Shown here one piece after another: positions 1 through 64,000 of a stretch of 64,000 nucleotides of DNA; position 1 is the first letter of the stretch; each line of letters opens with the position of its first letter. Below the pieces are notes generated by a model that did not search any database, was not told the origin of the DNA, and saw nothing but the letters and a program-made list of their open reading frames with translations. The translations under genes were made by a program, and so were the position numbers. Source of the stretch: Microgenomates group bacterium ADurb.Bin219 (lineage in GTDB: Bacteria; Patescibacteriota; Microgenomatia; UM-FILTER-40-11); the NCBI GenBank assembly GCA_002069945.1, contig MWCH01000002.1:79164-143163 (forward strand), written 5' to 3'.

Positions 1-56
1 AGACCAGCTTTCGGGCCGAAGAAGTCATCGACAACAGCTTTCTGCCCGGAAAGTAA
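1..56 (+). CDS. 3' end of an upstream gene (partial, about 18 codons; stop TAA at 54-56); possibly the substrate-binding component preceding the ABC ATPase
   Basis: Open frame running into window start and ending 20 nt before the RBS (gaaggaggg) of the next gene; too short to assign. Confidence 0.2.
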   Translation, partial: TSFRAEEVIDNSFLPGK

Positions 57-75
57 ATCCGAAGAAGGAGGGAAG

Positions 76-840
76 ATGAACGCCGTCACGACGGAGAACC
101 TGAACCTTTGGTTCGGGAACCAACAAGTTCTTAACGGGATCACTTTCGCCGTCAATAAAGGCGAAGTGGTCGCCTTTCTGGGTCCCTCCGGCTGCGGTAA
201 ATCAACCCTCCTTCGCGTTCTTGGGGGTATCATTCCAAAAATTACCCCCGCCCGCGTTGAAGGCAAGGTTTACCTTTTCGATTCTCCTTTGGAGGAAACA
301 AAAGCCGGAGCGATTGATCTTATGTCCCAGGAAGGAAGTCTTCTTTCCTGGAGAACAGCCCTGGAAAATACTCAATTGGGAATGGAGATCCTTGGCCGAA
401 GAAACCATCGGAATAAGGCTCAGGAGCTTTTACAAAAAGTCGGCTTAAACGGCTTTTGCCAACGCTTACCCCGGGAACTTTCCGGCGGAATGCGCCAAAG
501 AGTCGCCCTGGCCGCCACTTTGATTACCCAACCCGAGCTGCTTTTGATGGACGAACCTTTAGCCAATCTGGATTCCTTAACCCGTGAATCAATGTGGCAA
601 CTGATAGAAGAGCTGATTAACCAGAACCTTATCAAAACCGCCCTTTTTGTCACTCACTCAATCGAAGAGGCGGTTGTTCTGGCCAACCGGATCTTCCGGA
701 TGTCAAGTTGCCCTTGCCGGATCATAGAAGACGTTCCCGTGGAAATACCCCGGCCGAGGATTAAGAGCAATGGTGCTCTTGATCCCAGTTGCCTGGAATT
801 GGCCAATTATCTCCGGGCAAAAATCCGAGGTGATCAATGA
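76..840 (+). CDS. ABC transporter ATP-binding protein (NitT/TauT nitrate/sulfonate/bicarbonate-type)
   Basis: Walker A GPSGCGKST, ABC signature LSGGMRQRVALA, Walker B LLLMDEP, H-loop; strong RBS aggagg upstream; stop overlaps next gene. Confidence 0.85.
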   Translation: MNAVTTENLNLWFGNQQVLNGITFAVNKGEVVAFLGPSGCGKSTLLRVLGGIIPKITPARVEGKVYLFDSPLEETKAGAIDLMSQEGSLLSWRTALENTQLGMEILGRRNHRNKAQELLQKVGLNGFCQRLPRELSGGMRQRVALAATLITQPELLLMDEPLANLDSLTRESMWQLIEELINQNLIKTALFVTHSIEEAVVLANRIFRMSSCPCRIIEDVPVEIPRPRIKSNGALDPSCLELANYLRAKIRGDQ

Positions 841-1580
841 AAGACAAAAGAATCCTGCTTCCCCTCTTGACTGCCTTGTTGCTGACCGTTGGCTTTGAAA
901 TCGGATTGGAATTAGCCAATGTCTCCCGGTTTATCTTACCGAAGCCGTCGCTGGTTTTGAAAGCACTTTCTGAAAACTGGCCCTGGATCTTTGCCAACCT
1001 CAAGGTTACGGTTCAGGAAGCAATTGTCGGCTTTGGTTTAAGTTTGATTTTGGGAGTTGGCCTGGCTCTAAGCTATCTATTTCTACCCCAGCTTGAGCCA
1101 ATAATCGTTCCCTTGGCGGTGGCCATCAGAAATGTTCCTTTCGTGGCGATCGCGCCGATTCTTTTTATCACTCTCGGCTACGGTCAAACCCCGAAAATTC
1201 TGATTGTCATGATTGTGAGTTTTTTCCCGATCATGGCCAACACCGCCGCCGGGTTCCAGTCAGTAAATAAGTATCAACTGGAACGTTTTACGGTTCTAAG
1301 GGCCAGTCGTTGGCAGTTGTTTACCAAGTTGCAATTGCCAACCGCCCTTCCTTTTTTTGCAACCGGTGTGGACGTAGCCGCCAGCAACATCATTATCTCG
1401 GCGATTGTCGGCGAGCTATTGGGAACTACCCAAGGACTAGGCTTTGTCATCTTGATGAGCGTCAGCCAATTCCGGTTCGCGCTCCTGATGGCGGCCGTAG
1501 TCGTGACAACCGTTGTTTCCATTTTGCTAACCTGGTTTTTTCAGATAGCAACCAGAAACCTCTTCAAAAAATGGCTCTAA
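837..1580 (+). CDS. ABC transporter permease (binding-protein-dependent transport system inner membrane component)
   Basis: About 6 predicted TM helices; ATGA start/stop overlap with the ATPase gene; typical NitT/TauT permease size. Confidence 0.8.
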   Translation: MKDKRILLPLLTALLLTVGFEIGLELANVSRFILPKPSLVLKALSENWPWIFANLKVTVQEAIVGFGLSLILGVGLALSYLFLPQLEPIIVPLAVAIRNVPFVAIAPILFITLGYGQTPKILIVMIVSFFPIMANTAAGFQSVNKYQLERFTVLRASRWQLFTKLQLPTALPFFATGVDVAASNIIISAIVGELLGTTQGLGFVILMSVSQFRFALLMAAVVVTTVVSILLTWFFQIATRNLFKKWL

Positions 1581-1590
1581 AGGAGGAGCG

Positions 1591-2547
1591 ATGAACGTGA
1601 ACACGATTGCCGACATCAAAGATCTGCTGCAAGGTTGTTATCAAGATAAGCCGGCTATTGTTGCCTCGGTCGGCGGCTCGGGAACCTGGGCCATGGACAT
1701 GGCCGGCCCAGGCTTTCCCGAAGGAATGCCGGAAACTGGAGTCAAAACCGCGGTCGCTTTCCGTCAGGTTCAGACTCCCTTCGGTCCAATTCCGGTAGTC
1801 AAGATTTTAATCGTTGACGGTTCCCCGGTTATCCGGATTCCGGTCCACGGCTGGCGTTTCCCCATTCCCAATCTCAACCACACCAATGCGACTTTCTGGC
1901 TGCTCTTCCATCTGGGCATCAAGGAAGTCATCGTTGATGCTAGTGTGGGCGGAATCAAGGCCAAACCTTGGGATGTCGTTGTTCCCGACGATGTTATCAT
2001 CAACAACGAAGCAAAGCTGAAGATCCTTGAACTCACTAGCCAGATTGACGGTGATTCCCGGAAGCGAATGGCAGAACCGTTCTGCCCAACCCTGCGTCAA
2101 TGCTTGATCGCCGCCGTCAAAAGGCTGCCGGGCCTACAAGAAGTTTTTCCTCATGCGCCGCTGGCCGACCTGCACGAAAAGGGCACCTATTACACAATGC
2201 CCTTAACCGTCTTTGAAACCCCGGCGGAGATAAAAGATCTGAAGAAAAGGGGTTTTCTTGTCGTTGGCCAATCTTCCGGCCAGGAAGCTTTGGCCGCCCG
2301 GCTCTGCGGCATGCATTTCGCCGTTGTCAACCCGGTAGTCAACTTCGCCGAAGGCTTGGAAGGAGCCAGCTGGTCGGCAGGAGAAACCATGGCCGATCTT
2401 TACACCAGAATCGCTCCAACAATGGGATTGGTAGTCATTGAAGCCTTGAGGCTCATCCTCCGAACAAAGACCAATTGCCGCTGTTCGGAATATGCCTCAG
2501 CTACCGACCTGACCGTGTTTACCAACTCAACCACCTATCGGGAATAG
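1591..2547 (+). CDS. mtnP: 5'-methylthioadenosine / purine nucleoside phosphorylase family protein (MTAP-like)
   Basis: Motif RMAEPFCPTLRQ matches the MTAP family signature (PMAEPFCP); a second PNP/MTAP-like block is GQSSGQEALAARLCGMHFAVVNPVVN; aggagg RBS. Confidence 0.7.
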   Translation: MNVNTIADIKDLLQGCYQDKPAIVASVGGSGTWAMDMAGPGFPEGMPETGVKTAVAFRQVQTPFGPIPVVKILIVDGSPVIRIPVHGWRFPIPNLNHTNATFWLLFHLGIKEVIVDASVGGIKAKPWDVVVPDDVIINNEAKLKILELTSQIDGDSRKRMAEPFCPTLRQCLIAAVKRLPGLQEVFPHAPLADLHEKGTYYTMPLTVFETPAEIKDLKKRGFLVVGQSSGQEALAARLCGMHFAVVNPVVNFAEGLEGASWSAGETMADLYTRIAPTMGLVVIEALRLILRTKTNCRCSEYASATDLTVFTNSTTYRE

Positions 2548-2632
2548 CCTTCAGTTTTACCTGCGGGAAGCGGAGATTCTACCTAAGCGGTAGAGTTTTA
2601 CTTCGCTTCCCGCAGGATGTTTTTAAAAAACT

Positions 2633-3523
2633 CTACTTTGCCTCCGGCGGCAAACTCCATTTCCCCATATCGCCAACCGTAAAATTTCCGTTATCCTCCA
2701 AAAGATAAAAATCCTCCGATAATCGATAAACCGGAACCGCCGCCACCGCCTCCATCCGACCAAAACCAAAATGCCGCCTGGATTCAATTGACAAAAGTGA
2801 AGTTAATCCTCTTTGGGTCGCCGCGCTAACGGCAATAATTACCCTTGCTTCCGATAAGGCGGATTCCTTTTGCAGCTCCTCTTTAATCATTTCTAAAGTT
2901 CCCCAGGCGCTGATATACGAAGCCAAACAATCATCGGCAAAAACAAAATTGCGGTAAGCGGAAATTTTTGGGTTTTTATCCGCCAGCCTGACTCCCACCA
3001 TCAATCGGCCATCTTTGCCTAAAAGCCGGCTCATCCGGTAATCAAGAAAGTTTTCGGCCGGAAACCCGATTTCTTGATAAACCTCTTGGACAAAAATTCC
3101 CCCGTTTTTGGGAGGAGTAATTAAAGCCGATTGAGGATCAATCCGGTTGGCAACCGACCGGGCCAGCTCTTGATAAACAATTTTTAGATGATTCCGGTAT
3201 TCTTCCCGATCGGCAGGATTATTAAAACTCCTGTTCGGATCATTCGCCAATCGACAAATATCTCTCATTCTTGAAGCCACAATCGGAATATCAAAACCAA
3301 GATAAGTTAAATCCGTCCGGCGGTTAGCGGTTATTCTGTTTTCCGGAGGAACTGTTTCGCGAACAGAATCGAGCGAGCTGCCAAAATCGATGACCCGGTC
3401 AAAAGGACCAAGAGAACCTTCTTTAAGAAAATCCTTATCCACAACTAAACGGCCATCCAGGCCGCGAGTTAAAAAAGACGGCAGATTGACTTCAGGATAT
3501 ACAATCGGTTTTTCAATTGACAT
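2633..3523 (-). CDS. Hypothetical protein, weak phosphoribosyltransferase-like motif (possible divergent uracil/nucleobase PRTase)
   Basis: 296 aa soluble protein; segment NFVFADDCLASYISAWG loosely resembles the PRPP-binding motif of type I PRTases/UPRT; sits next to an NCS2 permease as in upp-pyrP pairs; RBS aggaggt upstream. Confidence 0.35.
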   Translation of the reverse strand: MSIEKPIVYPEVNLPSFLTRGLDGRLVVDKDFLKEGSLGPFDRVIDFGSSLDSVRETVPPENRITANRRTDLTYLGFDIPIVASRMRDICRLANDPNRSFNNPADREEYRNHLKIVYQELARSVANRIDPQSALITPPKNGGIFVQEVYQEIGFPAENFLDYRMSRLLGKDGRLMVGVRLADKNPKISAYRNFVFADDCLASYISAWGTLEMIKEELQKESALSEARVIIAVSAATQRGLTSLLSIESRRHFGFGRMEAVAAVPVYRLSEDFYLLEDNGNFTVGDMGKWSLPPEAK

Positions 3524-3635
3524 CTTTTACCTCCTTTTAAACTAAAACAAAATAAATTGCAAATAATTAAAAAAATCCGGTAAGGAGAAAGGATTTGGGG
3601 TGGTAAACCCAATCTCCCTACCGGTGTCTGGAAAG

Positions 3636-5150
3636 CTACAAAGACGAGAACTCTGGCTCTTCCCGGGTAAGCTTGGGGTAGCGCTTTTCAAGAAAGCTGG
3701 CAAAGTAATAAATGACCAAGCCAAGGACGATAGAAAAAGAGATCCCGCTTAGCCATTCTTCGCCGCGAAACACCAGCTTGAGGTTTCCCACACCTACGAT
3801 TTGCATTACCGCCGTTACCATGAAGTTCTTGATGTTGCGAAAGTTCAAGTGCTCCCGAATCGCCAATTCAAATCCCTGCACGGCGATAGAGCCAAACATC
3901 ACCACGGCCGCACCGCCGAGAATCGCGGTCATTATGGAGGAGAGAAAGGCGTTCAGGTGACCAGAAAACCCAAATGCTATCGACCAAAACGCCGCCATCA
4001 AAACCACGACCGTGGAAAAAACGCGCACCAGAGCAAAGACGCCCAGACCCTCGGCATAGGTTGTATTCCCTGCAGTTCCCACCATTCCTCCTGCCGGATC
4101 TGCCAAAGCATCACCAAGCAACGCCCGCCAGAGCTTGTCCATCAGTGGCCGATTGAGCAAACCCTGCAATACCAGGATATGACCAAGAGTCTCAAAACTT
4201 GTCGCCAAACACACCGGTATCATCTGAACCAAGCTCGCCAAATCAAAACGCGGGAGGAAAAACCCCGGCATCCTGAATAAGGGAGCGTTGATTACCGGTC
4301 GAACATCGATCTGACCACTGATGGCTCCAACCAGATACACAACCCCAATGGCCAGGACAATTGGGATCGTTCCCAAATATCCCGGGATGAACCGAAAAAC
4401 CAAGATCAGCAAGATGGTGGCAATCCCATACACAAGATTGGTCTGAGCCATGCCGGTCCCAACGCCAGCTAAGCTTAATCCAATGTTGACAATGATATTG
4501 GCCGCCACCACCTTCGGTACAATCTTTGCCAACGTCTCGGCCGCCTTATTCGCACCGCTCCGCTTAGTTATAAGGTAGACAAGCAGCGCCAGAGACAAAG
4601 TTACCAGTGTTGATTGAACAACCGCTCCGGTTGCGTAAGCCAGTGGGTTCACTCCGGAAGGAACGACTTTTGCCGCTCTCACCGACACCGAAACGATAGC
4701 CGCAATGTAGGTAAAAGACGTTCCGACAAAGTTCGGCATCAAGCCTGCGGTCACGATCGTCCAAACAATCGTTCCCAGCCCGGCGGCGACCAAAGCAACC
4801 AATGGATCAAATTGGTACGTTGTAACCCCATTGTCGGCCAGATACTTGTTGATAGTCAGAACACCAACCACCGTTGCCGGAGCACAGGCCGCAAAGACCT
4901 GCAATCCCCAGATCAAACTCCGCCACAAAGGCGGAATTTCTTCCGGCATTACATCCCGTGTCTTTTGAGTATTCCCCAACAGTAAGGTTCTTAAAGCAAC
5001 CATGTCTTGGCCCAATCCTTTCTTGTTTAGAGTCTGCTCAGCTTCCACCCCGAGTCGTGTTTGATTTGACAAAGCAAGAGCAGCAGCAAAATTCCAAGAA
5101 ACACCGTCTTTGAAACTTGCTACTACCCTTGCTTTTATGTAACCTTCCAA
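3636..5150 (-). CDS. Nucleobase:cation symporter-2 (NCS2) family permease (uracil/xanthine permease-like)
   Basis: 504 aa, about 12 TM helices; NCS2-like motifs GLQVFAACAPATVVGVL and TAGNTTYAEGLGVFALVRV (compare the GxTxNTxYsENiG block). Confidence 0.6.
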   Translation of the reverse strand: MEGYIKARVVASFKDGVSWNFAAALALSNQTRLGVEAEQTLNKKGLGQDMVALRTLLLGNTQKTRDVMPEEIPPLWRSLIWGLQVFAACAPATVVGVLTINKYLADNGVTTYQFDPLVALVAAGLGTIVWTIVTAGLMPNFVGTSFTYIAAIVSVSVRAAKVVPSGVNPLAYATGAVVQSTLVTLSLALLVYLITKRSGANKAAETLAKIVPKVVAANIIVNIGLSLAGVGTGMAQTNLVYGIATILLILVFRFIPGYLGTIPIVLAIGVVYLVGAISGQIDVRPVINAPLFRMPGFFLPRFDLASLVQMIPVCLATSFETLGHILVLQGLLNRPLMDKLWRALLGDALADPAGGMVGTAGNTTYAEGLGVFALVRVFSTVVVLMAAFWSIAFGFSGHLNAFLSSIMTAILGGAAVVMFGSIAVQGFELAIREHLNFRNIKNFMVTAVMQIVGVGNLKLVFRGEEWLSGISFSIVLGLVIYYFASFLEKRYPKLTREEPEFSSL

Positions 5151-49427: not shown

Positions 49428-49800
49428 GGGGATGACAGGCTTCGACGGAAAGCGCTCTTTTAAAACGGCAAGCCCCCGTTGATTCATCGGGGCTAAACAG
49501 GATCAAAAAATAAAAGTCAACGATACTGTTGATTCCGCAGTCAGCGAGAAATTCGCTGTCAATTACGCATTCGCGTAAACGGCATTCGGTGGGTTTTTTC
49601 TCAACGGAACCTTCCGGGTGTAAACAAAGTTGAGACGTAACCCCGGCGTTTGATTTCACCGGCGGGGCCAAAGATAAAAAAATCTAGCCCGGACTTTCTC
49701 GCCGATTGGATCAGGTTCGGGTGAAAAAATAAATTTCGGCTAAGCTTGTAGAAGTTTTAGAAAAGTCTTTTCGGATCCCGGTTCAATCCCGGGCATCTCC
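49428..49800 (+). ncRNA. ssrA: tmRNA (ssrA), standard one-piece form, directly after smpB
   Basis: 5' GGGGATGACAGGCTTCGACG pairs with 3' CATCTCC as a tRNA-Ala-like acceptor stem including the G3:U wobble; T-arm GGTTCAATCCCGG; candidate tag ORF ...GCAGTCAGCGAGAAATTCGCTGTCAATTACGCATTCGCGTAA (AVSEKFAVNYAFA*). Confidence 0.8.
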
Positions 49801-49959
49801 ACTTTGACTCGCCCTTCGCCATGACTCAAGGCTCGCTTGGTGTAAACACTTTGTCCGGATATAAATATATAAGGGGGTAGAACAAGCGAGTCGAAACCCT
49901 GGGTGAAGTCGAAGGGCTTTCGTCTTAGTTAAGTGTAAAAACAACGAGAGGATAAAAGT

Positions 49960-50984: not shown

Positions 50985-51069
50985 GGAGGGTATCCCGAAC
51001 GGTTGAGGGAATGGTTTGCTAAACCATGGCCGCGAAAGTGGTCGGTGGGTTCGACTCCCACACCCTCCG
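50985..51069 (+). tRNA. tRNA-Ser (anticodon GCT), class II with long variable arm
   Basis: Acceptor GGAGGGT/ACCCTCC, anticodon stem ATGGT/ACCAT with loop TTGCTAA, T-arm GGTGGGTTCGACTCCCAC; position 8 is A (atypical). Confidence 0.7.
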
Positions 51070-51100
51070 CCTTCGGCGGATGCAGTCCGCTATAATTCAA

Positions 51101-51187
51101 GGAGAGGTGCTAGAGTGGTTGAATAGGTCGGTCTTGAAAACCGATATAGCCGCAAGGTTATCGCGAGTTCGAATCTCGCCCTCTCCG
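51101..51187 (+). tRNA. tRNA-Ser (anticodon TGA), class II
   Basis: Acceptor GGAGAGG/CCTCTCC, anticodon stem TCGGT/ACCGA with loop CTTGAAA, T-arm GCGAGTTCGAATCTCGC. Confidence 0.8.
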
Positions 51188-51189
51188 CT

Positions 51190-51236
51190 TTCGCCCGCCA
51201 AAACTTTATGGCGGCGGCGACTGTTGATTTTATTTC
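51190..51236 (+). terminator. Probable rho-independent terminator after the tRNA-Ser pair
   Basis: GC-rich imperfect hairpin GCCCGCCA...TGGCGGCGGC followed by T-rich tract ttgattttatttcc. Confidence 0.3.
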
Positions 51237-51258
51237 CCCTTTCCGTTAGTCTTTAATT

Positions 51259-51900
51259 ATGCCCGAAGAAAATCTGCCCCCATCTCAATTAGAGGGAAAT
51301 CAAACCCCGGAATTATCCGATCCCGAGCCTCAGCCGATTGAAGTAATGGCGGTTCGTCAATTAAAAGTCCTTTTTGCTTGGAAGGCGGCGGTAAGACCCT
51401 TCAAGAAAAGAGATAAGGAATATTGGACAACCGTTTTTGCAATTCTTTTTTTGCTTGTTTTAATTTTGTTTTTCGTTAAAGAGTGGTTTTTGATCGCGGC
51501 GATAATTTCCTTGGCTTTTGTTTATTATGTTCTTTCTACTGTTCCGCCGGAGGAGATTGAATACCGGATTACCAATAAAGGAGTTGCTTTTGAAGATAAA
51601 AGCTATGATTGGGAATATCTTTGGCGTTTTTGGTTTTCCAACAAGTATGATCAAAGATTATTAAATATTGATACCCGGCTAAACCTTCCCGGCCGGTTGC
51701 TTTTTGTTATCAAAAAAGAAAACGAAAAACAGATTAAGGAAATTTTGGAAAAATATTTGCTTAACGAAGAAGCGCCGTTGACTTTCTTTGACAAGGCTTC
51801 GGCCTGGCTGGCCAAAAAAGTTCCTCTAGATTTAGAAGAGAAAGAGGAAAAAAAAGATCCTCCCTCGGGGCCAATTTTACCCACTTCTTCTCCGGCTTAA
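51259..51900 (+). CDS. Hypothetical two-TM membrane protein
   Basis: 213 aa; TMs TTVFAILFLLVLILFFV and FLIAAIISLAFVYYVL; lies between the two tRNA groups. Confidence 0.45.
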   Translation: MPEENLPPSQLEGNQTPELSDPEPQPIEVMAVRQLKVLFAWKAAVRPFKKRDKEYWTTVFAILFLLVLILFFVKEWFLIAAIISLAFVYYVLSTVPPEEIEYRITNKGVAFEDKSYDWEYLWRFWFSNKYDQRLLNIDTRLNLPGRLLFVIKKENEKQIKEILEKYLLNEEAPLTFFDKASAWLAKKVPLDLEEKEEKKDPPSGPILPTSSPA

Positions 51901-51974
51901 CTTTTGAACCTAAATTTTGGTATAATCTAGAGGTTTACCTGGAGTATCTCGACTTTTCTTAGTATAAGTTTGAT

Positions 51975-52049
51975 GTGCCTGTAGCTCAGATTGGATAGAG
52001 CGCAGCCCTGCGGAGGCTGAAGTCGGGCGTTCGAATCGCCCCAGGCACG
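51975..52049 (+). tRNA. tRNA-Arg (anticodon GCG)
   Basis: Acceptor GTGCCTG/CAGGCAC, D-arm GCTCAGATTGGATAGAGC, anticodon stem CAGCC/GGCTG with loop CTGCGGA, T-arm GGGCGTTCGAATCGCCC. Confidence 0.75.
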
Positions 52050-52056
52050 CATTATT

Positions 52057-52138
52057 GGAGGGTGGGCAGGACGGTAATGCGTTGGTTTCGAAAACCAATG
52101 TCCGTAAGGGCTAACAGGTTCGACTCCTGTACCCTCCG
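52057..52138 (+). tRNA. tRNA-Ser (anticodon CGA), class II
   Basis: Acceptor GGAGGGT/ACCCTCC, anticodon stem TTGGT/ACCAA with loop TTCGAAA, long variable arm, T-arm ACAGGTTCGACTCCTGT. Confidence 0.7.
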
Positions 52139-52248
52139 CACTTCGACTTGCATTCCTTTGCAGAGAGCAAGCCGTAAGTACAGTTTGAAGGGCGGCAAGT
52201 CTGGCTTGGCAAAGCCGAAGGATGGTTTACTCCGAACAAACGTGAGGA

Positions 52249-52322
52249 GCGCCCATAGTTTAACGGATAAAATGCTGGGTTCCGGACCCAGAGACTTGGG
52301 GGTTCAATTCCCTCTGGGCGCA
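52249..52322 (+). tRNA. tRNA-Arg (anticodon CCG)
   Basis: Acceptor GCGCCCA/TGGGCGC, anticodon stem CTGGG/CCCAG with loop TTCCGGA, T-loop TTCAATT. Confidence 0.7.
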
Positions 52323-52462
52323 CAAAAGATAGAGAGGAGAGGCCAGAGAACTGAGAAAAGTGTTTTTTTCTTTTACTCCTAATAAGACAGAAATTAACCA
52401 AGTCTCGCTTTTTGCTTCAAAAAAAGATAAAATTATGCTCTAAAGATCAATTTAGTTTACCC

Positions 52463-52552
52463 GGAGAGGTCGCATAGTGGTCGAGTGCACACGCTTGGAG
52501 AGCGTGCAGGGCCGAAAGGCTCTCGAGGGTTCGAATCCCTCTCTCTCCGCCA
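52463..52552 (+). tRNA. tRNA-Ser (anticodon GGA), class II, CCA encoded
   Basis: Acceptor GGAGAGG/TCTCTCC (one G:U), anticodon stem CACGC/GCGTG with loop TTGGAGA, long variable arm, T-arm GAGGGTTCGAATCCCTC, discriminator G + CCA. Confidence 0.8.
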
Positions 52553-58671: not shown

Positions 58672-59547
58672 CTAAATTTCCAAATGAAGAAAGTTGCGGA
58701 CGATTAAACCGATAAAAAAGCTTAAAAAAGCAACCCCAAAACTTAAGGAAAGATTTTCAAGAAATCTTTTTTTGAAAGAAACATCCTGGGTAATGGAGGT
58801 ATATAAGGAAAAAAAGAAAATTATCAGGCCGGCATTGGCTAAGGTTAAAGCAAGGGAAAGGTAATAATTTCGGGAAATAAAATAAGGACTTATCAATAAA
58901 ATTACCGTCATAACGTAGGTAATTCCGGTATATAAAGAAGCCTTTAGCGGGTTGCGGATAGTTTTCTCGCTTTTTGTAGAAAGATATTCGGAAGAGGCCA
59001 TTGATAATGAGGCAGCCAAACCGGTAATTAAGCCGGTAGCGCCGATTAATTGGTTGTTTTGCAGGGCCAAAGTTAATCCGGCTAAGGTTCCGGTCAATTC
59101 AACCAAGGCGTCGCTTGAACCGAGAACAATGGAGCCCATATATTTCAACAAATCCTCGTTTATCAGGCCGACGACCTCTTTTTCGTGCTTTTTTTCTTCA
59201 TCAATAATCCAGGCGAATTCTTTATTGGATTTAGCGAGCTCTTCATAGATATTTCTGATCGCCTCTTCTGTATGCTCCATTACTTTTACCCCAAAAGTCA
59301 GACCAAAAACTTTTCCGAGGTTAGAGTAAAACCAGACGCGCAATTTCTTTTGGCCGACTTCCTTTTGCGTAATATTTTGCCAATATTGGTAGTGTTTTAA
59401 AGAATCTTCAGCTAGATGGGTTAAGGTTTTTTTTGTTTCCTGGTTTTTTACTCTTTTGGTGAGGTTTTTATAGATTTGATATTCGGAGATTTCCAGTTGT
59501 TGGAGGTGAAGAATTTTATCAACGGTTTCTTTTGGAAGCGATTCCAT
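58672..59547 (-). CDS. Ferritin-like domain fused to VIT1/CCC1-family membrane transporter (iron/manganese)
   Basis: N-terminal rubrerythrin/ferritin-like helices (EYQIYKNL ... HLAEDSLKHYQYWQ ... EHTEEAIRNIYEELAK); C-terminal VIT-type TMs with GSSDALVELTGTLAGL and LITGLAASLSMASSEYLSTKSE. Confidence 0.65.
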   Translation of the reverse strand: MESLPKETVDKILHLQQLEISEYQIYKNLTKRVKNQETKKTLTHLAEDSLKHYQYWQNITQKEVGQKKLRVWFYSNLGKVFGLTFGVKVMEHTEEAIRNIYEELAKSNKEFAWIIDEEKKHEKEVVGLINEDLLKYMGSIVLGSSDALVELTGTLAGLTLALQNNQLIGATGLITGLAASLSMASSEYLSTKSEKTIRNPLKASLYTGITYVMTVILLISPYFISRNYYLSLALTLANAGLIIFFFSLYTSITQDVSFKKRFLENLSLSFGVAFLSFFIGLIVRNFLHLEI

Positions 59548-59694
59548 AAAGTAATATTACTACAAATGAAATTTACAATTTAGAAGGCATGATGTATAAT
59601 TTTGAGCGTAGACTAGTTGAGAATTGACCAGAGGTCTTTGAAAATTAAATAAACAAATTTGTACATTGTAACTTATCAATGGTACATTTTTTAA

Positions 59695-59989
59695 TCCCCT
59701 GTAGCTCAATGGTAGAGCGGCTCCCTGTCGAAGAGTAGGCAGCTTCCCGAAGTAATTCGGGTTGAAAAATCTGGCTAATTCGGGGAAGTCCTGAATTTAT
59801 CGAAGGATAATCCCGAGCTAAATTCCGAACGCAATGAAGGACTCGTCCTGAGCTTGCTGAAGGATAAACGTGTAGAGACTATATACCAGAGTCCGATTTT
59901 AATCGGACATAAGATAGTCCAAACCTTTTGGTAACAAGAGGGCTTTTGTAAGGAGAAGGTTAGAGGTTCGAGTCCTCTCGGGGGAGCCA
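59695..59989 (+). tRNA. tRNA-Asn (anticodon GTT, tentative) interrupted by a 220 nt group I intron in the anticodon loop; CCA encoded
   Basis: Exon 1 TCCCCTGTAGCTCAATGGTAGAGCGGCTCCCTGT (59695-59728), exon 2 TAAGGAGAAGGTTAGAGGTTCGAGTCCTCTCGGGGGAGCCA (59949-59989); joined they give a cloverleaf with loop CTGTTAA and T-loop TTCGAGT; one G:A mismatch at 27:43. Confidence 0.65.
59729..59948 (+). ncRNA. Group I self-splicing intron (small, IC3-like) inside the tRNA
   Basis: Conserved core elements: P AATTCGGG(G), Q AATCCCGAGC, R GTAGAGACTATA, S AAGATAGTCC (R GACTA pairs S TAGTC to form P7); IGS GCAG can pair with exon end CTGT giving the U:G at the 5' splice site; intron ends in G. Confidence 0.7.
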
Positions 59990-61564
59990 GATGGGACGCA
60001 GAGGCAACAAAGCGTCCTTTTGTGTTGAATCGTCGGGATTTTTTGTTAGTTCGAATTTTCCATTTTCCAAGTCGTCAATTTTTTCCACTTTCGGACCATT
60101 TGTTTCTATCACTGCTTCGGAGAGTAATTTAAAGGTTTTACTGTAGGTGTAGCTGAGTTTTCCTTCATCAACTGTTAAGGACCCGAAGACAAAGCGGATT
60201 AACGATCTCTGTTCATCGATCATGTCCTTGCTCTTGGCTTCCAGATAAATTTCTTTGGCTCTTTGAGAGAGTTCATAAATGCTCATGCCTAAGTTTAAGA
60301 AGCCAGTGCTGGCATTAGCATGCTTTTTAATCGACCCGGTGATTTCGTCTTTCTCCTCTGAATACTGTTTAAACTTGCGGTTATAAAACTCGGGGGTGAT
60401 TTTCTCATCGAGCTTATCGTCGTAGAGTCTGTCCATTCGTTTCTGCACCGCTTCATAACGGGTGTTCAGCTCGCCCATGGTGTCATTATGATATTCGACT
60501 TCGTCTTTGTGACTTTCCTTTAAGGCTTTACGGAGCCAGTCGGTAATCCGGGCGTTTTTGATACGAAGGTTTTCAAAGCCGCTAATAAGCTGAGATTCGA
60601 CCTCATCTTCTTTGACCCAGGTGGTCTGTGGGCATTCATGATAATGGTTACAATGGCCGTAAATGTATTGACCCTTAGCGATTTCGAAGGTAATGGAATT
60701 GTGGCACCCAGCGCATTTAATCAGTCCTCTAAAGAGAAAGTTGTGCTTGCGGTATTTGGGTGTAGTTCTGCTCGTTAGCATCGCCTGGACCTTATTAAAT
60801 TGCTCAACAGTAATCAATGGCTGGTGTTTACCTTCAAATAGTTCGTCGTTCCATTTGATTTTACCAATATAAAAAGGCTCACGGAGAAGGGAGTGGATCC
60901 GACTGTGTGGCAGCTTGTGTCCTAATTGGGATCTCATGCCTTCGGCGTACATTTTTTTGGAGAGCCGTTTAGTTGAGTAGTTGCCGGTGAGATAGAGTTC
61001 AAACATTTTCCTCACAAAAGGAGCGGTGTCCTCGTCGATGACATGGATTTTATGCCCAGTTTCGCCAATGGTCTTGTAACCGTTTGGTGGTTTGGTTGGT
61101 AGCCAGCCCTGGGCGATTTTCTCTTTCTGTCCTTTCTTAACGTTCTCTGATAATAGTCGTACATAATACTCGGCGGTAGCGACCTTTACTCGCCACATAA
61201 ACCATTCATGGGACCGGGAGGTGTTGTGGAGGATGCAGCCTTCTTTAGCCAAGTGGACCTGATGGGTTTCGTTCTCGGTAATCCAGAGATCAATCATGGG
61301 AACATCGGCAAAGTTCCTGGTCAGCCGGTCCGTAGTCTCAACAATAATGGTGGGGATATCGTGCTTGCGAACATAGGCCACCATCTCGATAAAGACTTTT
61401 CTCTGGGTTTTCCCAGCAGCCGATTCGGAAATGGCAAAGACTTTGGCTACTTCCAATCCTTGTTTCTCAGCATAATCGCGCAAGAACTTCTCCTGGGCTG
61501 GTAATGAGTAGCCCGTGTCTTCTTGTTCTTTGCTGCTGACTCGGCAGAAAATGGCAGTTTTCAT
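59960..61564 (-). CDS. Large serine recombinase (integrase), C-terminal codons overlap the tRNA 3' end
   Basis: N-terminal resolvase catalytic domain (IFCRVSSKEQ with catalytic Ser), recombinase domain, zinc ribbon CAGCHNSITF ... HCNHYHEC, coiled-coil; last 10 codons (WLPREDSNL*) are the reverse complement of tRNA exon 2. Confidence 0.85.
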   Translation of the reverse strand: MKTAIFCRVSSKEQEDTGYSLPAQEKFLRDYAEKQGLEVAKVFAISESAAGKTQRKVFIEMVAYVRKHDIPTIIVETTDRLTRNFADVPMIDLWITENETHQVHLAKEGCILHNTSRSHEWFMWRVKVATAEYYVRLLSENVKKGQKEKIAQGWLPTKPPNGYKTIGETGHKIHVIDEDTAPFVRKMFELYLTGNYSTKRLSKKMYAEGMRSQLGHKLPHSRIHSLLREPFYIGKIKWNDELFEGKHQPLITVEQFNKVQAMLTSRTTPKYRKHNFLFRGLIKCAGCHNSITFEIAKGQYIYGHCNHYHECPQTTWVKEDEVESQLISGFENLRIKNARITDWLRKALKESHKDEVEYHNDTMGELNTRYEAVQKRMDRLYDDKLDEKITPEFYNRKFKQYSEEKDEITGSIKKHANASTGFLNLGMSIYELSQRAKEIYLEAKSKDMIDEQRSLIRFVFGSLTVDEGKLSYTYSKTFKLLSEAVIETNGPKVEKIDDLENGKFELTKNPDDSTQKDALLPLRPIWLPREDSNL

Positions 61565-62331
61565 AGGCTTTGACCTGGCAACACAACATAAACGGAAACT
61601 CGAGCAATATCAAACAGAGAGAAGAAGGGTTCAAATCCGGTCGCATTTGGTCGCAATTGGTAGCATTCCTGGTGTAGCGTTGGTGTAACCTTGGTGTAGC
61701 CATAGGACACTCGTTTGTTGTGGGCTATAAGCGAGTGGGCAATAAATGAGAGGGGTTGGATGACTTGGATAATTGCTGGGTAAAAGGCTCGTAAATCCAC
61801 ACCAGTTTTACCCAAGAATTGCACAACCTTTAATGCCTGTAGATACCGAACCCACACCGAAACCTTGCCGAACCCTGTCATCAACATTTCACCGACAAAC
61901 CGCCGACTTATTTTTGTACCGATTTCATGCTGATTTTGTCCTGATTTATTCAGGTTGAAGTCCATATTTTCTGGGTAATCATTGGGTAACTCTTGGGAAA
62001 CCTTTTTCAGGCTAAATCTCTCATATTTTGGTGTAGGGTTGGTGTAGCTTCGGCGTAGCCTTTGACCGGTTATTTCTGGAGTAATATTGGAGTAAAGTTG
62101 GAGTAATTTATCTGTACTAATTTTGTACGAGCGTTGTCCTAATTTATCTCCAAAATCTGTCCAACTTTTGTCCAAGTATTGTCCAACCTCATTAGCCTTA
62201 AAAGCTGACCAACTTTTGACCAACAATTGACCAACCTTCATCCACATCTCATCCACCTTTTGTCCCACCTTAAAAGGTTCTTTTCCTAGCCAACTTTTAG
62301 CCAAGTTTCGGCCAACCTTGTTTTTCTTCAT
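61561..62331 (-). CDS. Doubtful ORF (256 codons) spanning a dense array of 10-12 bp phased DNA repeats; possibly non-coding or only partly coding
   Basis: Frame stays open largely because the repeat unit lacks stop codons in all minus-strand frames; protein shows irregular KSW/VGQ repeats that simply mirror the DNA repeats; stop overlaps integrase ATG. Confidence 0.25.
   Translation of the reverse strand: MKKNKVGRNLAKSWLGKEPFKVGQKVDEMWMKVGQLLVKSWSAFKANEVGQYLDKSWTDFGDKLGQRSYKISTDKLLQLYSNITPEITGQRLRRSYTNPTPKYERFSLKKVSQELPNDYPENMDFNLNKSGQNQHEIGTKISRRFVGEMLMTGFGKVSVWVRYLQALKVVQFLGKTGVDLRAFYPAIIQVIQPLSFIAHSLIAHNKRVSYGYTKVTPTLHQECYQLRPNATGFEPFFSLFDIARVSVYVVLPGQSL
61639..62320. repeat. Helically phased short direct repeats (iteron/centromere-like): several families at 10-12 bp spacing
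   Basis: GGTCGCATTT/GGTCGCAATT/GGTAGCATTCCT/GGTGTAGCGTT/GGTGTAACCTT/GGTGTAGCC (61639-61701); GGTGTAGGGTT/GGTGTAGCTTC/GGCGTAGCC (62030-62060); TGGAGTAATA/TGGAGTAAAG/TGGAGTAATT (62077-62107); at least 8 copies of TTG(T/A)CCAAC-like units (62150-62320), all at about 11 bp periodicity. Confidence 0.6.
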
Positions 62332-62360
62332 AGCGTTTTCGTTTTGTTAATTATTTTTCG

Positions 62361-62858
62361 TTAAAAACTCCTTCTAGTTAGTTTGTCGTCATCTCGCTTC
62401 TCGCGTATAACACCCGAGTCTATTAACTTAGTCTTGAATTCATCCCAACTACTCGTTTGTTGTTCACGACATACGGGATTTGAGGCGTGGGGAGCAAAGA
62501 TGGTGACGATTGCCTGGTTAAGCAAGTAGGAGTTATTAGCAAAGACATGGACCCCCTTCTTGTTCGTTTGTTTCTTCTTACTGATTTCGATGAGTGGTTT
62601 CCCTTCAAACCGTGCTTTGGCGAGAGAAGTAATTCGTCTGCTGACACTAGCTATACTGCCAAGGCCTAAAATCTGCTTGAGCTTGCTGAGGGAAGGGTGG
62701 CATTCGCCTTTATCATTGATGAATACTGCCAGAGCAGTGAAGGTATGCCATTGATCGGCGCTCACAGAGGCTAAGAGCCCCTTGAAAAAGATGGGGTTTC
62801 TCCAGAATTGGAGATACAAGTTTTCCGTTATTTCTTTTTGTTTCATTGACATATTCAT
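62361..62858 (-). CDS. Hypothetical protein of the integrated element
   Basis: 165 aa ORF with reasonable codon usage; no recognisable motifs. Confidence 0.4.
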   Translation of the reverse strand: MNMSMKQKEITENLYLQFWRNPIFFKGLLASVSADQWHTFTALAVFINDKGECHPSLSKLKQILGLGSIASVSRRITSLAKARFEGKPLIEISKKKQTNKKGVHVFANNSYLLNQAIVTIFAPHASNPVCREQQTSSWDEFKTKLIDSGVIREKRDDDKLTRRSF

Positions 62859-62884
62859 TTATTTGTTTCGGGCTTAAGCTACGT

Positions 62885-63034
62885 GCTGCTCTGTTTGGCT
62901 TCGATCTTCATCGCCGTTTCCGCAAAGCCAATCAAGACCAGGGCAACATCCAAGACTTCCTCTAGTTTTAGCTCTACGCCGTAGTCCTCTTTGAGAATCG
63001 CCCTGAGCTCGAGCAGGAGTTTCTGGCTTACCAT
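62885..63034 (-). CDS. Small hypothetical protein (49 aa), not in the ORF track
   Basis: Manual translation MVSQKLLLELRAILKEDYGVELKLEEVLDVALVLIGFAETAMKIEAKQSST*; start 1 nt after the stop of the upstream gene. Confidence 0.25.
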
Positions 63035-63291
63035 AGGCTCCTTTCGGCGTAGAGGCGCGATTTAATATCTCTTAACTGGTTAAAGAAAGTCTGGGGTGAG
63101 ATCTTGAGTTCGTTGCGAAAGTAGCCCTCAACGAGTTCTTCCAGTTCTGGGGATCGGAAGAAAACGAAGACGGCTTTGTGGGGATTGGACCGATCAATGT
63201 CTTGGATAGGAAACTGAAGGGAAATGGTAGTGGCTAAAGCTAAGTCACTGGTAACGTAAGTGTCGGAGTTTATTTGCTGATTCATAGTCAT
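63028..63291 (-). CDS. Hypothetical small protein of the integrated element
   Basis: 87 aa ORF; no recognisable motifs. Confidence 0.35.
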   Translation of the reverse strand: MTMNQQINSDTYVTSDLALATTISLQFPIQDIDRSNPHKAVFVFFRSPELEELVEGYFRNELKISPQTFFNQLRDIKSRLYAERSLW

Positions 63292-63488
63292 TTAATCGAA
63301 CTAGAATCAGTCTAGGAAAAAAGTTGTGTCCGTCTCAATAAACTTTGTGGTGATTTATGTTTACCTTTGTAAACAACGCGTATTATTTAAGTTGAGGTAT
63401 CTTGAAAAATAAATTGATTTGACAATCTCTTGTGAAGGAAGCTAACATCTCGACACGTTATTAGTTAGCCCTTGAGGAGTATAAAAAT

Positions 63489-64000
63489 ATGACAATGAAA
63501 ATAATTCAAAACAAACCCCTGGCTATTGCCTTCGTTTTCCTGGTATTACTTGGTTCTGCTTTCTGGCTGATTCAGCCTAAGACTCAGTCCGTTAAGGTTC
63601 AACAAGCCCAGGACCAAAAACTCCAACAAATTAAAGAGCTTACAGACCTGGCTAATAATGACCCTAAATATCGTGAGCATAACTCTCAAGCCAGCCGTGA
63701 ATTGTCTGACAAGCTCTGCTCTTTGACTGCTCGTTCTGCAGAAGAGCGGGAGAAAGCGGTGGCTGCTGTCCGTGATTTTCTGGAAATGCCCACAGTCAAT
63801 GTGAAGTATGAATGTAACGACGCTTTCTATAATCTGGAAGAGGACCGACTTATCGCTGCCAAGAGTGAAACCTACTTGGTAGATTCCACCTATTTTGTCG
63901 TGAATTCTGTAACAAACCATATCATGCAAGTGGATGAAACTCCTGGGACATGGGGATACAAAGCCGATGGCTCCCGTTGGTTTAGCGATCAGAAACAGTA
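63489..64000 (+). CDS. Partial CDS (N-terminal 170 codons) of a membrane-anchored/secreted hypothetical protein, running off the window end
   Basis: ATG at 63489 after AT-rich promoter-like region; N-terminal TM LAIAFVFLVLLGSAFWLI; open to the end of the window, so absent from the ORF track; the overlapping minus-strand ORF 63546-63929 is probably spurious. Confidence 0.4.
   Translation, partial: MTMKIIQNKPLAIAFVFLVLLGSAFWLIQPKTQSVKVQQAQDQKLQQIKELTDLANNDPKYREHNSQASRELSDKLCSLTARSAEEREKAVAAVRDFLEMPTVNVKYECNDAFYNLEEDRLIAAKSETYLVDSTYFVVNSVTNHIMQVDETPGTWGYKADGSRWFSDQKQ

Follow-up and report, generated by a model that had tools for sequence, protein, structure and literature searches.

The 64,000-nucleotide stretch of contig MWCH01000002.1 of Microgenomates group bacterium ADurb.Bin219 that was analysed here (the window) very probably carries, from about position 59985 rightwards past its edge, an integrative island of more than 11.6 kb. 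The island belongs to an undescribed, Patescibacteria-wide family, and its large serine recombinase (LSR) is specific for the tRNA-Asn(GTT) gene's 3' end. A preliminary description, made from the sequence alone, had proposed an integrated element at tRNA-Asn headed by an LSR, and this is supported by 52 loci of the same arrangement, a sharp breakpoint at the core of the attachment site and two complete relatives. In the full-text literature we found no description of this LSR family, nor of serine integrases targeting tRNA-Asn in these bacteria.

Pfam, an alignment of 47 homologues and an AlphaFold model agree that the gene product is, as first described, an LSR of 534 aa with an RVSSKEQ motif, a zinc ribbon and a coiled coil. 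The protein contains the domains Resolvase (PF00239, E = 2.8e-19), Recombinase (PF07508, E = 4.1e-17) and Zn_ribbon_recom (PF13408, 27.7 bits with a cut-off of 25.3). R8 and S10 of the motif R8-V-S10-S-K-E-Q are invariant among the 47 homologues, as are the zinc-ribbon residues C284, C287, C305 and C311. In the model, which was built on the same homologues and reached a predicted local distance difference test score (pLDDT) of 80, a helix at residues 119-151 (alphaE) is followed by the recombinase domain (RD) fold at 160-264 and by the zinc ribbon, and a long two-helix coiled-coil insertion at 353-445 (helices 353-385 and 391-445) is located between beta-strands. The domains that define the class are found: a catalytic domain with a nucleophilic serine, an RD after alphaE, and a zinc ribbon into which a coiled coil is inserted. 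Full-length Foldseek matches are the LSR-DNA complexes of SPbeta-type, Bxb1, phiC31 and LI integrases (E = 1e-12 to 6e-19), with an identity of 13-17% in the structural alignments; the modelled catalytic domain also matches those of TP901-1 and TnpX, and a sequence search against solved structures recovers the LSR by its catalytic domain only. The protein matches PHROG 95 'integrase'. With 99 bits against XisF (cut-off 375) and 89.5 bits against CcrB (cut-off 900), its nearest NCBIfam models, it belongs to neither of these families.

As noticed in the preliminary description, the LSR gene ends inside the tRNA, its last ten codons being the reverse complement of the tRNA 3' exon. The overlap comprises 30 nt (59960-59989), that is, nine sense codons (WLPREDSNL) and the stop codon. 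ARAGORN did not call a tRNA near 59.9 kb of the window, because the gene, the sole tRNA-Asn gene seen in this DNA, is split by a group I intron of 220 nt; splicing 59695-59728 to 59949-59989 yields a canonical 75-nt tRNA-Asn(gtt), which ARAGORN recognizes. The intron matches RF00028 at 59641-59941 with 64.8 bits (gathering score 50) and, as read from the sequence, has a U.G wobble at the 5' splice site, where exon CCUGU can pair with intron GUAGG, and ends in a terminal G (...UUUUG). A score above gathering, the U.G pair and the terminal G together identify it as a group I intron.

Homologues of the LSR with E <= 1e-20 number 1550, and the named ones are from the candidate phyla radiation (CPR)/Patescibacteria. 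Following a conserved RPIWL, many of them end in P-R-x-D-S-N-x-x-P, which is the translation of an antisense tRNA acceptor and T-arm, and other tails carry xxW(D/E)xFRT. We compared 80 loci from species-representative genomes with LSR identities of 43-92%. At 52 of these a tRNA-Asn(GTT) ends exactly at the Trp/Leu codon of the LSR (the CCA position), the tRNA gene being intronless in 41 cases and intron-containing in 11, which were checked by in-silico splicing; four further loci have tRNA-Asn-like 3' halves. Since the 52 loci share this tRNA end, the overlap is a family trait, and the site resides in the last codons of the integrase gene. LSRs with 87-92% identity occur in metagenome-assembled genomes (MAGs) named Woese-, Roizman- and Levybacteria, where they adjoin different tRNA-Asn sequences; this points to recent horizontal spread. 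The sole other tRNA among the 80 loci is a tRNA-Ser(TGA) at about 1248-1400 of locus L076, into which a divergent LSR of the family reads; this appears to be a target switch.

Attachment site and predicted left boundary

To derive the architecture of the attachment (att) sites, the junctions of more than 70 loci were aligned. The window matches its closest relatives with 90-95% identity over the 60 nt that adjoin the core on the LSR side. Beyond TGGCTC the similarity is that of tRNAs in general (0.69-0.83), or 0.20-0.49 where the partner is not a tRNA, and no flank homology beyond the tRNA was found between the window and these relatives. The bases of the acceptor stem are host-dependent directly beyond TGGCTC. 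The core thus delimited has 6 bp, TGGCTC in LSR sense or GAGCCA in tRNA sense, and corresponds to codons 526-527 of the LSR. Junctions that do not involve a tRNA (L002, L024, L025, L044, L060, L081 and others) carry a P arm of the form N6-TGGGAC-N5-(C/T)CGAAC. The resulting P'-core-P sites are dyad-symmetric, (G/A)TCCCA-N14-TGGGAC, with the TC of TGGC-TC in the middle, and share with the tRNA only TGGCTC(CCC). The tRNA arm has an RD-type motif, GAGGAC, at the same distance from the centre as TGGGAC of the P arm, and a zinc ribbon domain (ZD)-type motif, TCGAAC of the T-loop, which is 5 bp nearer the centre than (C/T)CGAAC of the P arm. According to Rutherford et al. 2013 (PMC3783163), the ZD motif of serine integrase sites lies at positions 16-24 in attP, whereas in attB it is found 5 bp further inward. 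Judged by their motifs, the predicted sites of the present family match this half-site rule.

Two complete relatives define both ends of an element. L032 has about 10.85 kb, with attR at 715, where the left flank is non-coding, and attL at 11561; its P arm is nearly identical to that of L024. L038 has about 10.4 kb, with attR at 1157 and attL at 11570, and its attR parts a gene of the 3-dmu-9_3-mt (methyltransferase) family and a glyoxalase gene from a KAP NTPase, a type IIG restriction-modification (R-M) system and DUF5659. In both, attL and attR share a core of 6-9 bp only. In L038 attL reads TGGCTC and attR TTTGCTC, and exchange is thus confined to GCTC. A close relative of the host DNA itself is L088, a metagenome contig whose flanks share about 91% identity with the window and whose tRNA-Asn is the same intron-containing gene (98% identity). 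Homology stops right after ...GGGGGAGC, where L088 continues with TCACTGTCTCACAGGTGGAAC in tRNA sense and ends 31 nt later; this native flank was not found in the window or at any locus. L088 represents either an empty site or one that is otherwise occupied, and in both cases close relatives differ in what follows on the right of the predicted core. In L087 the neighbouring VIT1 gene is 94% identical to that of the window, and the 4.7 kb beyond its tRNA-Asn contain no LSR of this family.

From these alignments, strand exchange is predicted to take place at the dinucleotide G71-A72 (59984-59985). Nucleotides 1-72 of the tRNA would accordingly be host DNA, the element supplying G73-CCA and possibly A72, and the element would start at about 59985 and not at 59960; LSR residues 528-534 and the stop codon are then encoded by antisense host tRNA. 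The preliminary description had likened the overlap to elements that regenerate a tRNA 3' end on integration, a view that we had to revise for the 3' exon, as about 25 nt of the overlap would be of host origin. It had also proposed to look for a direct repeat of the tRNA 3' end as attR. A direct search for a second copy found none in the window or the next 7.5 kb, and with a serine-recombinase core of 6-9 bp no long repeat is to be expected; attR would be recognizable by the P-arm motif TGGGAC-N5-(C/T)CGAAC instead. The native tRNA-Asn of several hosts (L038, L032, L088) lacks an encoded CCA and reads ...GAGCAAA or ...GAGCTCA. Since the element supplies GCCA to such tRNAs, integration alters whether the CCA is genome-encoded; in L038 the element provides the CCA missing from the native gene. 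One apparent attR, in L079, was dismissed: it is located inside the tail of a second, distant LSR and represents the joint between tandem elements, where the upstream LSR reads into the P arm of the downstream element. A chromosomal P'-core-P junction is thus not proof of a free attP.

The element side of the junction may serve a further function. In the 40 nt after the CCA (tRNA sense), almost every locus has a hairpin followed by a T-run, with a mean dG of -16.9 kcal/mol, and 11 of 14 subfamily representatives reach z = -4 to -7.5 against dinucleotide shuffles. The stems are wholly different between subfamilies (AGCAGAGC/GCTCTGCT, ACATCAGC/GCTGGTGT and AACGGACG/CGTCCGTT); the changes are compensatory, and T-runs follow. 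A covariation count in fixed columns was dropped because the stem register moves by 1-3 columns between subfamilies, and the shuffle scores were used instead. The hairpin of the window (59993-60018) has a 7-bp stem and -10.7 kcal/mol, is followed by UUUUGUGUU, and is not called by a simple consensus terminator scan since its loop exceeds 8 nt. We infer that the hairpin is an element-borne intrinsic terminator which would replace the native 3' flank of the tRNA and shield the integrase from convergent tRNA transcription. The last 42 or so residues of the LSR, encoded over hairpin and att site, are predicted by AlphaFold to be disordered, consistent with a constraint at the level of DNA and not of protein. 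In L032 the P arm at attR encodes an intact 33-aa tail, so that excision would rebuild a longer open reading frame (ORF). We considered a swap of the C-terminal tail as a functional switch; this idea is weakened by the predicted disorder and by the conservation, as the universal part consists of only eight residues mirroring the P-arm motif and the long tail is conserved in a subset only.

Taken as a mechanism, integration would keep nucleotides 1-72 of the tRNA and exchange G73-CCA for an identical copy from the element. The native downstream region of the tRNA would be replaced by the hairpin and U-tract, which would stop transcripts of the tRNA from continuing into the integrase gene in antisense direction. 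Reading through attL into the antisense tRNA, the integrase ORF would acquire the fortuitous tail PREDSNL*, and the original tail-coding segment would be located at attR, beyond the DNA seen here, and be joined to the ORF again by excision.

Positions of the tRNA gene, the attachment site and the genes of the element within the window (strand as read; a point marks features without strand)
Feature	Position	Strand	Evidence and remarks
tRNA-Asn(GTT) exon 1	59695..59728	+	nt 1-35, ends ...CUGU; host DNA; in-silico splicing, ARAGORN
Group I intron, 220 nt	59729..59948	+	between anticodon nt 35 and 36; Rfam RF00028; host DNA, outside the element
tRNA-Asn exon 2	59949..59989	+	T-arm, acceptor 3' strand, G73, CCA; 59949-59985 host, 59986-59989 (G73-CCA) probably element-supplied
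attL, about 50 bp	59960..60010	.	B arm = tRNA acceptor/T-arm 59960-59983; P' arm 59986-60010
Predicted crossover dinucleotide	59984..59985	.	GA in tRNA sense (G71-A72), TC in LSR sense
Large serine recombinase (integrase), 534 aa	59960..61564	-	Pfam, AlphaFold model, Foldseek
Terminator-like hairpin within LSR coding sequence	59993..60027	+	tRNA strand; GGGACGC, 12-nt loop, GCGUCCU, then UUUGUGUUG
256-aa ORF holding the arrays	61561..62331	-	overlaps LSR start (ATGA); no family matches; probably not a conserved gene
Eight mini-arrays	61639..62316	-	TRF; 7-8-nt words, about 3 copies each, 10-11 nt apart, A-rich spacers
165-aa DNA-binding protein (helix-turn-helix, HTH), conserved core	62361..62858	-	phrog_12720 'DNA binding protein' E = 2e-17; weak Pfam HTH_36; syntenic in L002/L003
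51-aa small ORF, conserved core	62879..63034	-	gene call, syntenic in L001-L003; no family match
87-aa DUF5659 protein, conserved core	63028..63291	-	Pfam PF18903 E = 8.8e-10; same position in L002, L003, L032, L038
298-aa core protein, N-terminal part, divergent	63495..64000	+	runs past the window edge; L001 7174-8070 gene call

Group I introns in CPR tRNAs have received a passing mention only (PMC8172020). Among about 56 tRNA-Asn genes of related Patescibacteria, at least 11 are interrupted at the identical position by introns of 190-599 nt. The intron of L088 is 98% identical to that of the window and has an extra insert of about 320 nt with an HNH-like ORF (about 100-420, reverse complement), which the window copy lacks. 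A near-consensus sigma-70-like promoter (TTTACA-17-TATAAT, 11/12) is located at 59572-59600, about 95 nt upstream of the tRNA-Asn gene.

Extent, gene content and alternative explanations

The small hypothetical genes beyond the LSR that had been noticed at first are present in the ORF list, together with the phased repeats discussed below. The conserved core of the family consists of the divergent 298-aa protein (296-300 aa in L002/L003, no family matches), DUF5659, an ORF of about 50 aa, an HTH protein of about 165 aa, the array field and the LSR. The right end lies outside the window, as had been stated. Locus L001, from the 43-kb Logan contig SRR17648133_52841 of the same strain, reaches 7.5 kb past the window and adds a 55-aa HTH_17 protein, RhuM/PDC-S05, a type I HsdR, a fused HsdM-S and DUF87. 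RhuM/PDC-S05, the type I R-M genes and DUF87 make up the defence cargo of this island. As attR is absent from this stretch, too, the element must exceed 11.6 kb, and its right end must be located more than 7.5 kb past the window. Protein-index searches gave no contig extending past L001 (DUF87 matches at 62-72%, LSR at best 90%), and for VIT1 and ArsR the only exact protein matches were on the same contig or on a fragment of 1.1 kb. Across the family the cargo is variable and mostly concerned with defence: R-M systems, AbiU2/HEPN, KAP NTPase, PycTM and RhuM. Candidates for a recombination directionality factor (RDF) are the small core ORFs and the 55-aa HTH_17 protein outside the window.

Composition had been suggested to differ from that of the upstream chromosome. 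This holds for the strand-symmetrised tetranucleotide signature, which is distinct (z = 5-5.7) from 60 kb onward, starting at the tRNA, and does not hold for the GC content, which is 0.40-0.44 to the right of the tRNA as compared to 0.418 +/- 0.025. Elsewhere in the window, positions 1-5000 have a GC content of 0.46-0.52 (about 0.42 in the rest) and no rRNA by Rfam, and a tmRNA with the unusual tag peptide VNDTVDSAVSEKFAVNYAFA (49428-49802) is followed by a cluster of six tRNAs (50985-52552: Ser-GCT, Ser-TGA, Arg-GCG, Ser-CGA, Arg-CCG, Ser-GGA), similar to one in L088.

Several points weigh against an intact, mobile island with the boundaries given above. Its attR was found neither in the window nor in the 7.5 kb beyond, and no circular or free form was detected, the 17 complete short contigs having no terminal overlaps. 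A scan of IMG/VR with the LSR and the patterns used gave no matches and, hence, no relatives among viral contigs. The crossover position is deduced from sequence, and the native B' arms of the hosts of L032 and L038 have no clear half-site motif. The weak hairpin of the window (z = -1.4) renders the terminator assignment tentative for this copy. In the comparison with related genomes, which had been recommended as a check, L088 diverges after the core and L087 is without the LSR, but L088 gives only 31 nt past the tRNA and may hold another element, and L086, L087 and L091 are not strict empty-site controls because they have another tRNA-Asn allele. In these three loci a different, intronless tRNA-Asn (TCCGCGGTGGCGC..., at L086 677-750, L087 4757-4830 and L091 9808-9882) stands by a VIT1 that is 91-94% identical to that of the window, and homology with the window stops at 59520; it seems that even the tRNA-Asn gene was exchanged among close relatives.

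The tRNA-Asn gene looks like a stacking hotspot for several families of serine-integrase elements. Distant LSRs (26-32% identity) are situated beside an LSR of the family or near tRNA-Asn in L035, L054, L063, L070, L079 and L091; in L052 the tRNA-Asn lies 5.4 kb past the LSR. Two decayed copies were observed: in L015 (about 4400-4470) a deletion comprises the P' arm, the hairpin and the last 40 or so codons of the LSR, so that the LSR is joined straight to the end of the tRNA-Asn, and in L050 (about 1740-1800) a frameshift is located closely upstream of the core. The P arm and tail-coding segment of L024 (11573-11680) and L032 (715-830) share more than 90% DNA identity; the LSR bodies diverge far more, with 72% and 58% identity to the window LSR, which argues for mosaic exchange of att arms between elements.

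Against this background, the element in the window might have decayed or become immobilised, or might belong to a tandem stack, with LSR and attL intact, attR lost or belonging to another element, and no excision as a unit. The lack of an attR within 11.6 kb, although the complete relatives measure 10-11 kb, fits this explanation, as do the tandem stacks and decayed copies in L079, L063, L052, L054, L015 and L050. However, the ORF of the LSR is intact and has kept every invariant residue, the P' arm retains 90-95% identity to those of other elements, the LSRs of 87-92% identity in Woese-, Roizman- and Levybacteria MAGs imply recent mobility, and elements simply differ in the size of their cargo. 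We regard a remnant or stack member as unlikely. That the element is a temperate prophage, with the LSR as its integrase and the rest past the window, is considerably less probable still. The PHROG match, the excisionase-like HTH_17 ORF and the RhuM/anti-repressor-like protein nearby would be in line with a phage, but with Pfam, PHROGs, NCBIfam and PADLOC, genes for capsid, tail, terminase or lysis were found neither in the 11.6 kb seen nor in L032 and L038, the two complete relatives. These two carry R-M systems, HEPN, KAP NTPase, nitroreductase and glycosyltransferase genes instead, and relatives in IMG/VR are lacking with the patterns used. Conjugation genes are not present in the element either. 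The absence of both phage structural and conjugation genes argues for an integrative island and not a prophage.

The mechanism first envisaged, in which the element brings the whole or most of the tRNA 3' exon and leaves a displaced tRNA fragment at attR in the manner of tyrosine integrases, has very little probability. The 30-nt overlap of ORF and tRNA is superficially similar to that situation, but the near-identical P' arms adjoin tRNA parts that differ between hosts, beginning with the 7th base after TGG, attL and attR of L032 and L038 have just 6-9 bp in common, and the restriction of the identity between P'-core-P sites and tRNA to TGGCTC(CCC) contradicts it. Hardly conceivable, finally, is a resident, vertically inherited recombinase without any mobile element, as the conservation of the LSR-tRNA-Asn adjacency across the phylum might suggest, given the unrelated flanks beyond the tRNA, the variable cargo, the attR junctions in relatives, the close relatives of the host without the LSR and the shift in tetranucleotide signature.

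A field of phased mini-arrays

Directly upstream of the LSR gene of the island lie the phased repeats pointed out in the preliminary description, which resolve into eight mini-arrays of a kind specific to this family of elements. Their words are TTGGCTA, TTGGTCA, TTGGACA, TTACTCCA, CTACACCA, TTACCCA and TGCGACCA; each unit comprises a word of 7-8 nt and an A-rich spacer of 3-4 nt, with a period of mostly 11 nt and of 10 nt in one array. Exact triple 7-mers at a spacing of 10 or 11 nt occur 28 times in the 72 kb located up to 1 kb upstream of LSR genes and not once in the other 1.13 Mb of the loci; within the window they are confined to this field. Each element has 5-10 triplets with differing words from a repertoire that is shared and reshuffled among elements, TTGGTCA being present in nine elements. 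Words are invariant within arrays and across elements, and spacers are variable.

The arrays reside in an ORF of 256 aa, which we rejected as a gene: its length ranges from 22 to 304 aa in close relatives, and its conserved part is restricted to the last 25-60 codons directly upstream of the LSR. In L006 most arrays are outside the ORF. A unit of 11 nt passes through all three reading frames, the ORF lacks conservation, and the words stay constant where spacers vary; the arrays are therefore considered sites at the level of DNA. A weaker sigma-70-like promoter (9/12) was noticed on the minus strand at 61613-61585, in the conserved end of the array region directly upstream of the LSR start.

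Iterons, too, consist of direct repeats at the spacing of one helical turn. The arrays resemble the sites of 186 Apl, P2 Cox and lambda Xis and the iterons of plasmids and phages in being helical-turn direct repeats, here just upstream of a recombinase gene, and differ from them in that 5-10 separate triplets per element each have their own word; the protein binding them is putative. Direct repeats one helical turn apart are the binding mode of small RDF or regulator proteins such as Apl (PMC7498355). It might be speculated, albeit tentatively, that the field is a new combinatorial control or replication module in which each triplet is a cooperative site for a different small DNA-binding protein. 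Such proteins could come from the element itself or from islands stacked at the tRNA-Asn hotspot, and the triplets could jointly set integrase expression, excision or episomal replication.

Relation to known systems and significance

LSR chemistry and site architecture of the family are classical; new are the target, the att site within an ORF, the mimicry of the T-arm, the embedded putative terminator and the array field. Phage LSRs (Listeria A118/LI Int, SPbeta SprA, Bxb1, phiC31 and TP901-1) have the same domain architecture and likewise use short dyad-symmetric att sites with a central dinucleotide and a ZD motif that, on the host arm, is 5 bp closer to the centre. In contrast to these, the family described here targets the 3' end of a tRNA and not a protein-coding gene, has its attP core inside the integrase ORF and is carried by small islands without phage genes in Patescibacteria. 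XisF and the Ccr proteins of SCCmec are, likewise, large serine recombinases of chromosomal elements; the LSR of the window scores far below their cut-offs.

Integration into tRNA genes is usually ascribed to tyrosine integrases (e.g. PMC4383910). Islander-type islands with tyrosine integrases (PMC4383910) are similarly inserted at a tRNA 3' end, leave the tRNA intact and have an integrase that abuts it. They differ in that the enzyme here is a serine recombinase, the identity block comprises 6-9 bp and not tens of nucleotides, and no displaced tRNA fragment is present in relatives. Of the features by which Islander recognizes islands, an intact tRNA with an island-restored 3' part is found (probably 4-5 nt), and a tyrosine integrase is not. 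In SSV1-type archaeal integrases, which are tyrosine recombinases of archaeal viruses, attP lies inside the int gene, and in the integration-dependent immunity of mycobacteriophages it lies inside the repressor gene. As in these systems, the att core of the present family is part of a coding sequence of the element, and integration would alter the C-terminus of the protein, which excision would restore. The alteration differs in affecting only a tail of about 40 residues predicted to be disordered, with the catalytic and DNA-binding domains intact, and, unlike SSV1, the enzyme is a serine recombinase in bacterial (CPR) hosts.

The family thus represents a clade of serine integrases which, in many named lineages of Patescibacteria, uses one invariant site, the G71-A72-G73 end of tRNA-Asn. 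An attP arm that has come to copy the T-arm of the tRNA, with the 5-bp attP/attB offset, provides a natural illustration of the model of site recognition by serine integrases. With the integrase C-terminus, the att site and a putative terminator of host tRNA transcription, three functions are combined in about 60 bp, which illustrates instructively how economically sequence can be used, and the mini-array field is a conserved DNA feature. For these ultra-small bacteria, which are hard to cultivate and genetically difficult, tRNA-Asn emerges as a main landing pad for defence islands, and an LSR with a universal, conserved 50-bp target could serve as a genetic tool in Patescibacteria.

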